From: an uncultured Gemmatimonadales bacterium
Lineage (GTDB): Bacteria; Gemmatimonadota; Gemmatimonadetes; Gemmatimonadales; GWC2-71-9
DNA length: 64,000 nucleotides
Direction: 5' to 3'
Assembly (NCBI GenBank): GCA_963730185.1
Contig: CAVSQW010000015.1
Span: forward strand, 96,001-160,000
Positions 34,892 to 39,630 of this stretch are shown in pieces. Below the pieces are notes generated by a model that searched no databases, was not told the DNA's origin, and saw only the letters and a list, made by a program, of their open reading frames with translations. A program made the position numbers and the translations under genes. How positions within the stretch are numbered: position 1 is the first letter of the stretch; every line of letters begins with the position of its first letter.

Positions 34892-35107
34892 ATGGAATAC
34901 GAGTCGATCGTCGAGGTTCTGGGATATGCCACCGGTCACGAGCGGCAGGTTCGGATCACCACCACCGATGCCCGCGAGGTGGTCGGTGTGCCGACCAGCC
35001 TCGACCCCGACATCGGCGCCCTCGAGGTGTACCTTCACCCGGTCGGGGCGGACGATGTCGAGATCGCGATCTCTCTCGCCCAGATCGCCCGAGTGGACAT
35101 GGCGTAA
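34892..35107 (+). CDS. 71-aa hypothetical protein (helix plus beta-rich, possibly Sm/SH3-like)
   Basis: GGAGG RBS at 34881-34885; MEYESIVEVLGYATGHERQVRITT...ISLAQIARVDMA. Confidence 0.65.
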   Translation: MEYESIVEVLGYATGHERQVRITTTDAREVVGVPTSLDPDIGALEVYLHPVGADDVEIAISLAQIARVDMA

Positions 35108-35117
35108 GGACGAGCGC

Positions 35118-35144
35118 TGAAACATTTTGGAACGTTTGAACGTA
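35118..35144 (+). promoter_or_regulatory. ECF sigma (SigW-type) promoter of the psp-like operon
   Basis: TGAAAC-ATTTT...(17 nt)-CGTA in an AT-rich patch about 90 nt before the first gene. Confidence 0.6.
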
Positions 35145-35234: not shown

Positions 35235-35516
35235 ATGTTTAGTGACGTGATCGTTTCGATTGCCGGCATGCTTTCGGGCATCGTCGTTGTCGGCTTTCTG
35301 GCCGTCGCGGTCGTGAAGATCTTCCGCGGGCCGGTTGGTCAGGCACTCGCCCGACGGCTCTCGGGCGGTGCGGGCGCTGGCCCCGAGGTGCTGGGCGAGG
35401 TCGAGGATCTCCGGCAGCAGCTCGAGCACGTCCAGCAGCGGCTGCTGGATGCGGAAGAGCGGCTCGACTTCAGCGAGCGACTACTGGCGCAGCGTTCGGA
35501 GGCGGAACGCGGATGA
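35235..35516 (+). CDS. Small TM plus coiled-coil protein, PspB-like paralog 1
   Basis: TM, FRGPVGQALARRL, AEERLDFSERLL. Confidence 0.8.
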   Translation: MFSDVIVSIAGMLSGIVVVGFLAVAVVKIFRGPVGQALARRLSGGAGAGPEVLGEVEDLRQQLEHVQQRLLDAEERLDFSERLLAQRSEAERG

Positions 35517-35812
35517 ACCGTGATGCCGTGACCTTTCTGGGCGTGATGATGGGACTCGCGCTGACCGGGGCGTTCAGCTACGCCGCGTTCACCGTGATCA
35601 ACGGGATGGCTCGGCGGATCAACTCCCGGTCGGCGCCGCCGGGGCTCGAGCCCGACGAGGTCGAGGCGCTTCGGGGCCAGGCCATGGAGATCGACGACCT
35701 CCGGACCCGGCTCCTCGAGGTGGAGGAGCGGCTCGACTTCACGGAACGATTGCTCACCGATGCCCGGGACGGCGGTCGGCTTCCCGGCGTCGGGCATGAG
35801 ACGCCGGTATGA
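35513..35812 (+). CDS. Small TM plus coiled-coil protein, PspB-like paralog 2
   Basis: TM, GMARRI, VEERLDFTERLL; ATGA overlap. Confidence 0.8.
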   Translation: MNRDAVTFLGVMMGLALTGAFSYAAFTVINGMARRINSRSAPPGLEPDEVEALRGQAMEIDDLRTRLLEVEERLDFTERLLTDARDGGRLPGVGHETPV

Positions 35813-36180
35813 TCGGGCTCGGGCTTCGATCCCTGGTCCAGCAGGCGCCGCTGCCGCCGCTGCCGCCGCTGCCCCCGGACATGCCCCAGGTGTTCGTCGG
35901 GAGCGGCCCCCCGGTCGAGGCGATCATCTCGGTGGTGGTGGTAATCGTCGGAGCGTTCCTGCTGTGGCCTCTGGTTCGGGCCTGGGCTCGCCGGCTCGAG
36001 CGGGGCGGCGGCGGGGCCGACCAGGAGGCCCGGGGTGAGATCGAGGCGCTCCGGGCCCGTGTGGCGGAGCTCGAGGTGGTGGAGCAGCGGGTGCTGGAGC
36101 TCGAGGAACGAATGGACTTTTCGGAGCGGCTCTTGACTCAGCGAACCGGTGAGCCGCTTCGGAGGGGGGAGGACGCGTGA
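35809..36180 (+). CDS. Small TM plus coiled-coil protein, PspB-like paralog 3
   Basis: Pro-rich N-terminus, TM, PLVRAWARRL, LEERMDFSERLL; ATGA overlap. Confidence 0.8.
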   Translation: MIGLGLRSLVQQAPLPPLPPLPPDMPQVFVGSGPPVEAIISVVVVIVGAFLLWPLVRAWARRLERGGGGADQEARGEIEALRARVAELEVVEQRVLELEERMDFSERLLTQRTGEPLRRGEDA

Positions 36181-36449
36181 ATCCGAACGATGTCGCGCCG
36201 ATGGTCATGGGGCTGGTCTTCTTCGTCGTGGCGGGAGCGGTTCTCATCTTTCGGGGGCCGATCGGCAAAGCCATCGCCCGCCGACTCGATGGGGGACAGG
36301 TGGCGCCGGAGGGACTGGAGGGCCGGGTTACCGAGCTCGAAGTGCGCTTGGCCGAAGCGGAGGTGGAGCGGCACGAGCTGGCGGAGCGGGTCGACTTCGC
36401 GGAGCGCCTCCTGGCGCAGGTCCGCGAGCGCAAGGAGCTGCCCCGGTGA
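36177..36449 (+). CDS. Small TM plus coiled-coil protein, PspB-like paralog 4
   Basis: TM, FRGPIGKAIARRL, LAERVDFAERLL; GTGA overlap. Confidence 0.8.
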   Translation: MNPNDVAPMVMGLVFFVVAGAVLIFRGPIGKAIARRLDGGQVAPEGLEGRVTELEVRLAEAEVERHELAERVDFAERLLAQVRERKELPR

Positions 36450-36826
36450 CCTCGTTCCGCCGGGCCGTCGGCGTCGACTTCGTGGACGTCGTGATCCAGG
36501 CCGGCGTGACGCTGGCGCTGGTCGGCTCCGTGGCTGCCGGGGACGGACCGATCGAGGCGGTCGGGCTGATCATCGCGACCTCATTCGTGATCCTGGGCCT
36601 CCGACGCCACTTGGCGCTCAAGCGGGGCGGCGAGCCGGCCGGGCTTTCCACCGGCCAGATGGCGGCCGAGCGGGTGGCCGATCTGGAAGCGCGGCTGGAG
36701 GAGCTCGAAGCCGTGCACGCCCGGATGGTGGAGCTGGAGGAACGGGTCGACTTCACGGAGCGGCTGCTGGCCCGAGGCGCCCAGGTCGAGCTGCCGGCCG
36801 AACCCCGCGCACCGACCCCGGTCTGA
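36446..36826 (+). CDS. Two-TM plus coiled-coil protein, PspB-like paralog 5
   Basis: GTG 36446 overlaps previous stop; two hydrophobic segments; LEERVDFTERLL. Confidence 0.78.
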   Translation: MTSFRRAVGVDFVDVVIQAGVTLALVGSVAAGDGPIEAVGLIIATSFVILGLRRHLALKRGGEPAGLSTGQMAAERVADLEARLEELEAVHARMVELEERVDFTERLLARGAQVELPAEPRAPTPV

Positions 36827-36860
36827 GGAGGCCCGATGATCGCGAAAGAGAGGGGAGCCG

Positions 36861-37193
36861 ATGGGGCGTGATCGGTCGCTGCTGGCCATGGCCATCGTGG
36901 GCGTCGCGCTGCTCACCGCCCACGTCGTCCTCGGCGTCGCCATTGGTGACGACTACGCCATCCCGGTGACCGTCATCGGTGCCATCGCCGCGACGATCGT
37001 GCTGCGGGGACCGCTGGGGCAGGCCCTGGCCCGGCGAATCCAGGGAGAGACCGTGTCCGGCGAGCTCCCGCCGGAGACGGTGCTGAACGAGCTCGACGAT
37101 CTGCGCTCCCGGGTGTTGGAGCTCGAGGAACGGGTGGATTTCTCGGAGCGATTGCTGGCGCAGGCGCGAGAAAGCGAGCGGGCGGGTAGCTGA
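36861..37193 (+). CDS. Two-TM plus coiled-coil protein, PspB-like paralog 6
   Basis: GGAG RBS; two TMs, LRGPLGQALARRI, LEERVDFSERLL. Confidence 0.8.
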   Translation: MGRDRSLLAMAIVGVALLTAHVVLGVAIGDDYAIPVTVIGAIAATIVLRGPLGQALARRIQGETVSGELPPETVLNELDDLRSRVLELEERVDFSERLLAQARESERAGS

Positions 37194-37228
37194 ACCCCCC
37201 GTTATCTTCCGTCTCGGAGGAACGCCGA

Positions 37229-37624
37229 ATGATTACGAAGGATGATCTGCAGTCGTTCATCGATCGGCTGGAGGGTGGATCGGCCGACGCGAAGGAAATC
37301 GAGCCCGGTATCTGGGTGGTGCGAACCCCCCAAGGGGCCGAGGTGGTCGTGAGCTATTCGCCGCCGGTGGTGATCCTCCGGGTTCGGGTCATGGAGCCCC
37401 CGGGAGACGCCGGCAGGCGAGGCGGACTGTTCCGCCAGCTCCTCGAGCTCAATGCCCGCGACCTGGTACATGGGTCGTACGGCCTCGAAGGCGAGCACGT
37501 GGTGCTCACCGACACGCTCGAGCTCGAAAACCTCGACTACTCCGAGTTCGAGGCGAGCTTCGACTCGCTCACCCTCGCGCTCGCCTCGCACCTGGGCGCC
37601 CTCGCCCCGTACCGGGAAAGGTAA
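37229..37624 (+). CDS. CesT/YbjN-like (type III chaperone fold) protein
   Basis: 131 aa acidic; LFRQLLELNARDLVHGSYGL..VVLTDTLELENLD..EF; directly upstream of pspA; GGAGG RBS. Confidence 0.75.
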   Translation: MITKDDLQSFIDRLEGGSADAKEIEPGIWVVRTPQGAEVVVSYSPPVVILRVRVMEPPGDAGRRGGLFRQLLELNARDLVHGSYGLEGEHVVLTDTLELENLDYSEFEASFDSLTLALASHLGALAPYRER

Positions 37625-37631
37625 CGATCCG

Positions 37632-38393
37632 ATGGGGATCTTCGAACGCTTCTCGACGATGCTCAAGTCGAACATCAACGACTTGATCTCCCGGGCCGAG
37701 AACCCGGAGAAGATGTTGAACCAGCTAATTCTCGACATGAAGTCGAACCTGGCCAAAGCCAAGCAGGAAGCGGCCGGGGCGATTGCCGACGAGAAGAAGC
37801 TCCAGGCTGACGCCGAAGGCCTCCGCAAGCAGGCCGAGGACTGGGAGCGCCGGGCCATGCTCGCGGTGCAGGAGGGACGCGACGACCTCGCCAAGCAGGC
37901 CCTCCTCCGCTACAACGAGGCGCTCCAGGGCGCGCAGAGCCTCCACGAGACCTGGCTCAAGCACAAGGCCGACACGGAGACGCTGAAGCTCCAACTTCGC
38001 CAGCTCAACGACAAGATCGAAGAGGCCAAGCGGAAGAAGAACATCCTGGTGGCCCGGGCCAAGCGGGCGGAGGCCCAGCAGCGGATCCAGGAAACCATGG
38101 CCGGGATGTCGGACAAGAGCGCCTTCGAGTCGTTCGATCGGGTGGCCGAAAAGATCGAGGCAATCGAACGGAAGGCGCTGGCCGCGGCGGAGCTCCAGCA
38201 GGAGTTCCAGACCGACGACCTGACCGCCCAGTTCAAGCAGCTGGAGTACAAGGGCTCGGCCGACCAGCAGCTCATCGACCTCAAGAGCAAGATGGGGCTC
38301 CTGGGCAAGGGTGAAGCTGCCAAGCAGATCGGGAAGGGTGCCGACCAGGTCGACGACGCCGAGGTCGTCGAGGACGAAACCGACGCTCACTGA
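37632..38393 (+). CDS. pspA: PspA/IM30 (bacterial ESCRT-III) family protein
   Basis: MGIFERF..KSNINDLISRAENPEKMLNQLILDM, WERRAMLAVQEGRDDLAKQAL; start ATG 37632. Confidence 0.95.
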   Translation: MGIFERFSTMLKSNINDLISRAENPEKMLNQLILDMKSNLAKAKQEAAGAIADEKKLQADAEGLRKQAEDWERRAMLAVQEGRDDLAKQALLRYNEALQGAQSLHETWLKHKADTETLKLQLRQLNDKIEEAKRKKNILVARAKRAEAQQRIQETMAGMSDKSAFESFDRVAEKIEAIERKALAAAELQQEFQTDDLTAQFKQLEYKGSADQQLIDLKSKMGLLGKGEAAKQIGKGADQVDDAEVVEDETDAH

Positions 38394-38446
38394 CCCCGGC
38401 CGAGCCGGGGGCCTCGAGCGGGCGGGGGGGAATCCCCGCCCGCTCG
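38394..38446 (+). terminator. Two GC-rich hairpins after pspA
   Basis: CCCCGGC-CGA-GCCGGGG and CGAGCGGGCGGGG..CCCCGCCCGCTCG; no clear U-tract. Confidence 0.5.
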
Positions 38447-38464: not shown

Positions 38465-38499
38465 TTGACCCGGGCCGGGTTTAGCATACAATTCTGTAT
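38465..38499 (+). promoter_or_regulatory. Sigma70 promoter with overlapping palindromic operator
   Basis: TTGACC-N16-TACAAT; ATACA-ATTC-TGTAT inverted repeat (38486-38499) over the -10. Confidence 0.6.
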
Positions 38500-38547: not shown

Positions 38548-39630
38548 ATGCCCGAGCCTCGCTACCTCATCATCGCCGACGGCAACTTCCACCCGTTGGA
38601 GTCGAAGACGGCCAACTCGGTGATCCGATATCATCCCCAGCGGGTGGTCGGGGTTGTGGACCGGCAAACCGCCGGCAAGACCGTCCAGGACATTCTGGGC
38701 TTCGGCGGCCCCACCCCGATCGTCGGCTCGATCGAGGCCGGGCTGGCCCTCAAGCCCAACGCGGTGATGATCGGCATCGCCCCGGCCGGCGGGCGGCTGC
38801 CCGACGAGTGGCGGGGGTGGCTGGTCAAGTCGTTGGAGGCGGGGTGTGACCTGATCAGCGGACTCCACACCTTCCTCGGCGACGATCCCGTGCTGGCCGC
38901 CGCGGCGGCCAAACACGGCCGGACGATCACCGACGCCCGGAAGGCGCCTGCCAACCTGCTGATTGCGGCCGGGCAGGCCCGCCTGGTCGAGCCGTTCGTG
39001 ATCCTGACCGTCGGCACGGACTGCAACGTCGGCAAGATGACCGCGCAGCTTCAGCTGACCCAAGCTCTCAAGGCCCGGAAGGTCAGGACCAACTTCGTTG
39101 CGACCGGCCAGACCGGCATCTTCATCGAGGGGTGGGGCACCGCCGTGGATGCGGTGGTGGCGGACTTCATCGGTGGCGCCGCCGAGGAGTTGGTGCTTCG
39201 GGGCGCCAAGGATGCCGACATCGTGATGGTCGAAGGGCAGGGGAGCATCAACCATCCGGGCTACTCCGGGGTGACGCTCGGGTTGCTCCACGGCTCCTGC
39301 CCCGATGCGATGATCCTTTGCCATCAAGCCAGCCGGGACCACATCGGGGAGTACCGGACCACACCCTGGCTCCGGATTCCGCCCCTGTCCAAGTACGTGG
39401 AGATGTACGAGCTGATCGGCTCGGCCGTCCACCCCACTCGGGTCATCGGGATCTCGCTCAACACCTACGACCTGTCTCCCGAGGCCGCCCAGGCCGCGTG
39501 TCGGGCGGCGTCGGAGGAGACCGGGCTCCCGTGCACCGACCCGGTCCGCTTCGACTCCGCGCCCTTGGTCAACGCGATCCTCCGGGAGCGCGAGGCCTAC
39601 CTGGAGCGGCGGGCCCTCTTCCGAGACTGA
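38548..39630 (+). CDS. DUF1611 domain P-loop protein
   Basis: IGIAPAGG, VGTDCNVGKMT, ATGQTG, DAVVADF, VEGQGS..HP.YS, LLHGS.PD. Confidence 0.92.
   Translation: MPEPRYLIIADGNFHPLESKTANSVIRYHPQRVVGVVDRQTAGKTVQDILGFGGPTPIVGSIEAGLALKPNAVMIGIAPAGGRLPDEWRGWLVKSLEAGCDLISGLHTFLGDDPVLAAAAAKHGRTITDARKAPANLLIAAGQARLVEPFVILTVGTDCNVGKMTAQLQLTQALKARKVRTNFVATGQTGIFIEGWGTAVDAVVADFIGGAAEELVLRGAKDADIVMVEGQGSINHPGYSGVTLGLLHGSCPDAMILCHQASRDHIGEYRTTPWLRIPPLSKYVEMYELIGSAVHPTRVIGISLNTYDLSPEAAQAACRAASEETGLPCTDPVRFDSAPLVNAILREREAYLERRALFRD

Follow-up and report, generated by a model that had tools for sequence, protein, structure and literature searches.

In the pspF-pspABC system of proteobacteria, pspA is encoded together with the small membrane proteins PspB and PspC. 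In the alphaproteobacterial genera Erythrobacter and Sphingomonas, pspA operons are found that carry tandem, diverged PspB-like membrane genes; for Erythrobacter litoralis (AOL22920.1) the supplement of PMC11237479 gives PspA, PspB, PspC+PspB and five further PspB. The same work (Ravi et al. 2024, PMC11237479) reports PspB domains fused to PspC, and the CesT/Tir-PspA dyad, in which a CesT-like gene is placed directly before pspA. In Bacillus, according to PMC7619361, the PspA homolog LiaH is recruited by a small membrane anchor, LiaI. Here we analyzed a locus of an uncultured Gemmatimonadales bacterium (GCA_963730185.1, contig CAVSQW010000015.1; genome estimated to be 82% complete) in which six paralogous genes for small membrane proteins, hereafter the array, are followed by a CesT-like gene and pspA. 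The window, as the term is used below, is the whole stretch of 64,000 nucleotides that was analyzed, positions 96,001 to 160,000 of the forward strand.

The array is real and conserved. It consists of six open reading frames (ORFs) of 90-126 aa on the + strand, whose products share 31-47% pairwise identity and whose GC content at third codon positions (0.77-0.90) is coding-like. The ORFs agree with the first-pass annotation of this DNA, which had described six consecutive genes of this size, the first five overlapping at their start and stop codons (ATGA, ATGA, GTGA and GTGA); genes 5 and 6 are separated by a 34-nt gap. The six tails that it quoted (EERLDFSERLL, EERLDFTERLL, EERMDFSERLL, AERVDFAERLL, EERVDFTERLL and EERVDFSERLL) are right, as are the ARR motif in five paralogs, in three of them as GPxGxAxARR, and the one or two transmembrane (TM) helices per paralog, given that hydropathy yields a single segment in each of genes 1-4 and a pair in each of genes 5 and 6. 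Its reading of the genes therefore stands, including the chaperone-fold gene followed by pspA, both of which exceed the cut-offs of their Pfam models; what it overlooked is a promoter of the extracytoplasmic function (ECF) type. The cesT gene ends 7 nt 5' of pspA, which is the arrangement of the CesT/Tir-PspA dyad, and PspA is a full-length member of the PspA/IM30 family, covering positions 1-217 of the 220 in the PF04012 model, whose score stays under the cut-off of TIGR02977, the equivalog model of the E. coli type. One copy each of cesT and pspA was found in the genome. The features of the operon are the following:

35118..35144, + strand: predicted ECF-type promoter, TGAAAC-N17-CGTA plus a second TG[ACG]AAC[AG]T box, a candidate operator
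35235..35516, + strand: paralog 1, 93 aa, with one TM helix, a GPxGxAxARR helix, a coiled coil and the tail EERLDFSERLL
35513..35812, + strand: paralog 2, 99 aa, one TM helix
35809..36180, + strand: paralog 3, 123 aa, proline-rich N-terminus, one TM helix
36177..36449, + strand: paralog 4, 90 aa, one TM helix
36446..36826, + strand: paralog 5, 126 aa, two hydrophobic segments, without the ARR motif
36861..37193, + strand: paralog 6, 110 aa, two hydrophobic segments
37229..37624, + strand: cesT, 131 aa, CesT/Tir-like chaperone fold (PF22550 CesT_Tir_1, 83.1 bits against a cut-off of 27)
37632..38393, + strand: pspA, 253 aa (PF04012 PspA_IM30, 159.1 bits against a cut-off of 33.9)

With CesT as the query 35 of 41 genomes were matched, and the loci of 33 of the 34 relatives were compared. 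The array lies directly upstream of cesT-pspA in 27 of these 33, that is, in 21/21 loci of the same family (1-9 copies, some arrays being cut by contig ends) and in 6/6 loci of family f3 (2-5 copies). Three cesT-bearing genomes of other genera hold 6, 10 and about 12 copies, and in other orders one divergent member precedes cesT in 5 of 10 genomes. Among 24 further genomes of the same family CesT was found in 10 and not found in 14; in a set of seven genomes without cesT in the locus (five of these 14 plus G122 and G209, each read at its array match), 3-9 members stand directly before pspA in 7/7. Because the array adjoins pspA even in genomes without a CesT match, its partner is more likely to be PspA than CesT. 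The link between array and pspA that had been proposed from this single locus is thus kept in most of the relatives compared, with or without the chaperone gene.

The family profile matches 269 of 301 genomes of the phylum, among them 125/125 of the same family, and outside the array-bearing families there are mostly 1-4 matches per genome (up to the best 16 candidates were scored in each genome; the tally includes the unpublished G181, which is the sole basis of no claim). In a quick tree of 141 rows with many weak forks, from which 3 rows that contained N or were too short had been left out, the paralogs cluster by array position across the genus, so that the paralog classes are old and have been retained. 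When GTDB genomes were scanned at DNA level for the tail pattern, 78 of the 80 loci listed from 136 matches belonged to Gemmatimonadota, the remaining two being an actinobacterial record and an unclassified one; the nearest ESM clusters to the array proteins are also from Gemmatimonadota. One relative (L033, G013:C16) has an array down to its last gene, with a tail-coding remnant between promoter and gene that marks an apparent internal deletion.

For paralog 1, AlphaFold2 (118-row alignment) predicts a TM helix at residues 2-31, a short juxtamembrane helix at 33-43 and a long helix at 50-92, joined by a loose linker (mean predicted local distance difference test 89.7, predicted TM-score 0.43). 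Hydropathy and model agree on an N-terminal TM helix followed by a helical domain, the layout of PspB; since the basic ARR motif comes directly after the TM helix, the tails would face the cytoplasm. The tail motif R-x-[DE]-F-x-E-R is invariant across the six paralogs, and in its strict form occurs 12 times in the six-frame translation of the genome versus 0.002 expected. Its R, F, E and R occupy heptad positions g, c, e and f in 118/118 sequences, the D is present in 91% of the 118 rows, and the core d position holds only A, S or T. The aromatic residue is therefore invariant outside the heptad core, which is more than a zipper would need and suggests a binding surface. With the paralog model, Foldseek gave no match in the PDB at E<=0.001, and a PDB sequence search gave only weak matches to channel tails, the tail of the KcsA C-terminal bundle being similar at E 0.041; the CesT protein had no match in the same type of search. 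Matches of the paralogs to V-SNARE, MerR and other Pfam families were below cut-off and were discarded as coiled-coil noise.

Among described proteins, the paralogs resemble PspB and the C-terminal domain of PspC: they are small, have an N-terminal TM helix and a putatively cytoplasmic coiled coil, are encoded with pspA, and end in E-R-h-x-x-x-E-[RS]-h-h. Unlike PspB, they carry D-F-[AST] in place of x-x-L in the last heptad, and they score below all cut-offs; paralog 5 alone in the array matches TIGR02976, at 11.6 bits against a cut-off of 51.7, and no match to PF06667 over cut-off was found anywhere in the genome. Of the NCBIfam families, the relatives match TIGR02976 (PspB) more often than any other (37/118 at E<=1, best 1.8e-5), and of 32 dispersed or divergent members 6 match PspB and 3 match PspC at E<=0.1, the best being a dispersed relative against PspC positions 31-105 (2.9e-6). 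The nearest ESM clusters that bear a Pfam family are PspB (0.77), which serves as a lead only. Using hhalign, in-register alignments were obtained with E. coli PspB (40%) and with two extra genes of Sphingomonas (50-52%); a PspB profile of 11 rows also reached 40%, its size being limited because homolog and plasmid searches returned mostly 82-100% identical enterobacterial copies. The Sphingomonas genes belong to a group of three unannotated small genes behind pspC in the psp operon of NZ_CP155749.1 (L372:4712-5592), two of which resemble the tail and are the best single matches to the array profile. Heptad-preserving shuffles reached the scores of E. coli PspB and of the two extra genes in 6, 1 and 0 of 300 trials; overall, six of eight targets were reached in 0-8 of 300, PspD in 64 and the third Sphingomonas gene in 37. 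From the sequence comparisons, the array paralogs are probably remote homologs of the PspB/PspC tail. What remains of the PspB-like identity first assigned to them is thus a weak PspB-type kinship, in which no PspB model was passed, and the accompanying idea that PspB recruits PspA has to be corrected, since PMC5596341 assigns the binding of PspA to the C-terminal domain of PspC rather than to PspB.

The organization of the locus departs from each of the described systems. Unlike in pspF-pspABC, the array genes stand before pspA, the operon includes neither pspC nor pspF, and the promoter is of the ECF type. The alphaproteobacterial arrays share the tandem, diverged PspB-like genes but keep pspF and pspC, whereas the Gemmatimonadales operon has a CesT-like gene and an ECF promoter; the expanded array noted in the first-pass annotation is present, although the multiplication of PspB as such is not new, being already contained in the supplement of PMC11237479. 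In the dyad as presented in that paper, the partners are band-7/flotillin, polyamine genes or YjfL, and no PspB-like array. With LiaI-LiaH and sigmaW control in Bacillus the locus shares a small membrane protein, putatively an anchor, beside a PspA homolog, and the TGAAAC/CGTA promoter type; in contrast, it has no match to the LiaI family, many paralogs, and belongs to a diderm lineage. The string 'Gemmatimonad' has 0 occurrences in the main text and supplement of PMC11237479, and there are 0 Gemmatimonad mentions in the text of PMC9239133; our literature search found no description of the array, although the web-app tables of the former and the external data of the latter could hold one. The locus is a PspC-less, PspF-less, ECF-type variant of the PspB-like array that is apparently undescribed for the phylum.

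The absence of pspC and pspF near the array, also claimed initially, was supported by a search with family models, which found no pspC in the operon or locus; to this we add a stand-alone 68-aa PspC gene on another contig (G000:C8:12282-12449, L066). This gene is possibly transferred or mis-binned, because the GC content of its stretch is about 0.60 compared with 0.695 for the genome. PspC was found in 11/60 genomes of the same family. Regarding PspF, 20 NtrC-type matches were obtained in the 82% complete genome, none of them over the TIGR02974 cut-off and none on the contig of the window.

The predicted ECF-type promoter lies 117 nt 5' of gene 1, and the second box follows 10 bases after the first. 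The TGAAAC/CGTA elements agree with the sigmaW-type consensus given in PMC5758882, so that by motif match a predicted promoter of this type is conserved ahead of the operon. The core is present in 17/22 upstream regions of the same family, with four of the five misses cut by contig ends, and the second box accompanies it in 16 of the 17; it also precedes the array in 5/6 regions of f3 and the first operon gene in 8/10 loci of other orders, against a background frequency of about 0.3% per 200 nt. Within the genome, TGAAAC-N17-CGTA occurs 19 times versus 0-5 times at ten other spacings. Most of the 19 sites are close upstream of genes for transport, PadR or envelope functions (gene identities were assigned by eye).

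An extended motif, comprising the second box and a leading T, marks three sites of the genome: the array operon, the gene of a 149-aa protein with a PAS domain and a Fis-type helix-turn-helix (HTH_8) and without an ATPase domain (PAS-Fis; G000:C6:492953-493402, - strand, L077), and the gene of a 72-aa membrane protein of no known family (G000:C3:84143-84361, + strand, L076). The same three targets are marked in 5/5 genomes of the genus (15/16 matches); the motif occurs at 22/25 PAS-Fis loci and 23/29 loci of the small gene, and in 24/60 genomes of the family, where 29 of the 30 matches with loci (of 40 matches) are these targets. Of 41 genomes in the order, 38 were found to have the small gene, and 28/29 of its loci carry the ECF core. 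These sequence patterns make the array operon, the PAS-Fis gene and the 72-aa gene a candidate three-member regulon. The PAS-Fis transcript is likely leaderless, because the start codon lies about 10 nt after the -10 box. The 72-aa protein was considered as a PspG and rejected, as just one member out of 21 matched PF09583/TIGR02975 (E values of 0.073 and 0.5) and hhalign gave 13%; it resembles PspG in size only. A pairwise comparison of PAS-Fis with E. coli PspF gave no significant match (E 0.38).

That PAS-Fis binds the second box is a tentative and somewhat doubtful proposal. All 24 genomes with the extended motif are among the 32 that have a close PAS-Fis ortholog and none is among the other 28, these kin not being independent of each other. 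Against this role, PAS-Fis is present in 58/60 genomes of the family, more broadly than the motif; G078 has the extended box and gave no PAS-Fis match with the query used; Fis-type proteins usually recognize inverted rather than direct repeats; and the motif ahead of the candidate sigma gene (see below) is not conserved. A fourth near-match precedes genes for an ECF sigma factor, a zf-HC2 anti-sigma factor and two Toastrack (DUF4097) proteins, at a locus (G000:C8:487615-491840, L284) divergent from a band-7 gene; sigma, anti-sigma, Toastrack and band-7 are all known partners in the Psp network. As the cognate sigma factor this candidate (C8:488611) is not supported by conservation: it carries the motif, but the motif occurs at only 2/30 homolog loci, itself included.

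Downstream of pspA two further elements were located by sequence:

38394..38445, + strand: two GC-rich hairpins 3' of pspA, without a T run
38465-38492, + strand: sigma70-like site ahead of the DUF1611 gene

Because of the hairpins and the separate sigma70-like site ahead of the next gene, the operon likely ends just 3' of pspA. The next gene (38548-39630, + strand) is DUF1611/DgcN-like and lies downstream of pspA in most related loci. On the other side, a 71-aa gene of no known family (34892-35107, + strand) ends 10 nt 5' of the promoter; a homolog of it was found in only 1/33 related loci.

We propose, giving it about an even chance, that the paralogs are stress-induced membrane anchors that pair via their coiled coils and offer a common helix to PspA, thereby nucleating repair polymers. 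Envelope stress would activate an ECF sigma factor, upon which array, cesT and pspA would be transcribed together; the paralogs would pair through coiled coils, as PspB and PspC do, and the outward-facing invariant R-x-D-F-x-E-R residues would bind PspA, a bacterial ESCRT-III protein, and nucleate its polymer at the stressed inner membrane. Given that no PspF is present to be released, the array would have the role of an effector or anchor, like LiaI for LiaH, rather than one in signalling. The diverged N-termini may provide differing membrane positions or cues, CesT would be an optional helper, and the PAS-Fis protein could add feedback by binding the second box. In a bolder version, which we consider quite unlikely, the fixed paralog classes would co-assemble into an ordered heteromeric scaffold with many identical PspA-docking helices on display, in function the counterpart of ESCRT-I/II of eukaryotes, under a two-layer circuit of ECF sigma factor and PAS-Fis.

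Several observations weigh against paralogs that are PspB-like anchors of PspA. No curated PspB cut-off (PF06667, TIGR02976) was reached, PF06667 is missing from the 25 families with the most matches, and other coiled coils were matched nearly as often as PspB (SlyX-like 26/118, GspM 20/118). The best hhalign probabilities were 40-52%, and four comparisons, with Sphingomonas PspB, the third extra gene of Sphingomonas and the two PspC proteins, stayed below 4%. In none of the six loci of family f2, and in only five of the ten from other orders, does a member precede cesT-pspA, and according to PMC5596341 PspBC of Yersinia protect without PspA. The tail is also not a feature of the pspA operon alone: nine further family members lie elsewhere in the genome, away from pspA, one of them with the promoter core, and in f2 genomes (L079-L087) one or two relatives with diverged tails have, as judged by eye, a histidine kinase on one side and an NtrC-type response regulator on the other. 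One of the nine dispersed members carries the same tail in a TM2 fusion (PF05154; G000:C1:99445-99843, + strand, L073), near full length in 23/24 genomes of the family, whose architecture may parallel that of PspC, a membrane sensor plus a PspB-like tail. A reading of the tail in terms of PspA only is weakened by the dispersed copies, the TM2 fusion and the kinase/NtrC setting. A search for longer family proteins gave 3 matches, and four multi-copy 'fusion' proteins were read as frameshifted arrays, not genuine fusions.

Some of these facts would be accommodated if the paralogs were co-induced but PspA-independent protectors, whose own hetero-oligomer plugs or engages membrane proteins that are damaged, in the way that mislocalised secretins are dealt with by PspBC of Yersinia. 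PspBC are reported in PMC5596341 to be sufficient against secretin toxicity, with PspA dispensable; translational coupling and fixed gene order suggest co-assembly, and many copies are located away from pspA. We nevertheless regard this explanation as rather unlikely, since the array lies directly against pspA even where cesT is missing (7/7), and a fixed complex is hard to reconcile with copy numbers that range between 1 and about 12. The wide occurrence of the tail raises another explanation, namely that it serves throughout the phylum in docking to, or oligomerisation with, a different partner (a kinase, a protease or itself), that its likeness to PspB is coiled-coil convergence, and that the array is just one among several stress-linked contexts in which it is used. 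The matches in 269/301 genomes, mostly 1-4 outside the array-bearing families, the settings in a kinase/NtrC operon, at bshC-murJ, at PadR-ABC and in the TM2 fusion, and the similar tail sequence in the KcsA bundle are in line with it; two separate pointers to Psp, the shuffle-tested in-register similarity to psp-operon proteins and the linkage to pspA in several orders, speak against it and make it, in our judgement, unlikely.

The position of cesT between array and pspA wherever it is present would also suit a tail that the CesT-like chaperone binds as a client motif, thereby bridging the membrane proteins to PspA, and CesT-type folds do bind short segments. However, the tail is unchanged in 7/7 arrays where cesT was not found, and cesT-pspA is kept without an adjacent member in 6/6 f2 loci, so that we find this role for CesT very improbable.

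The operon bears on how bacterial ESCRT-III proteins reach damaged membrane in lineages other than those of the models E. coli, Bacillus and Mycobacterium. If the paralogs act as anchors of PspA, up to about 12 of them with one invariant exposed helix would indicate which residues to mutate and provide a small soluble peptide to be tried against PspA, and such work could in addition reveal the way in which PspA is contacted by the PspC/PspB tail. The three-member regulon, if true, would mirror pspABC/pspG/pspF, and the two-layer circuit, if true, would be new for Psp, with an ATPase-less PAS-Fis protein in the place of PspF. The shared promoter box points to a concrete candidate regulator of a system without PspF, in a phylum that is abundant but has barely been studied.

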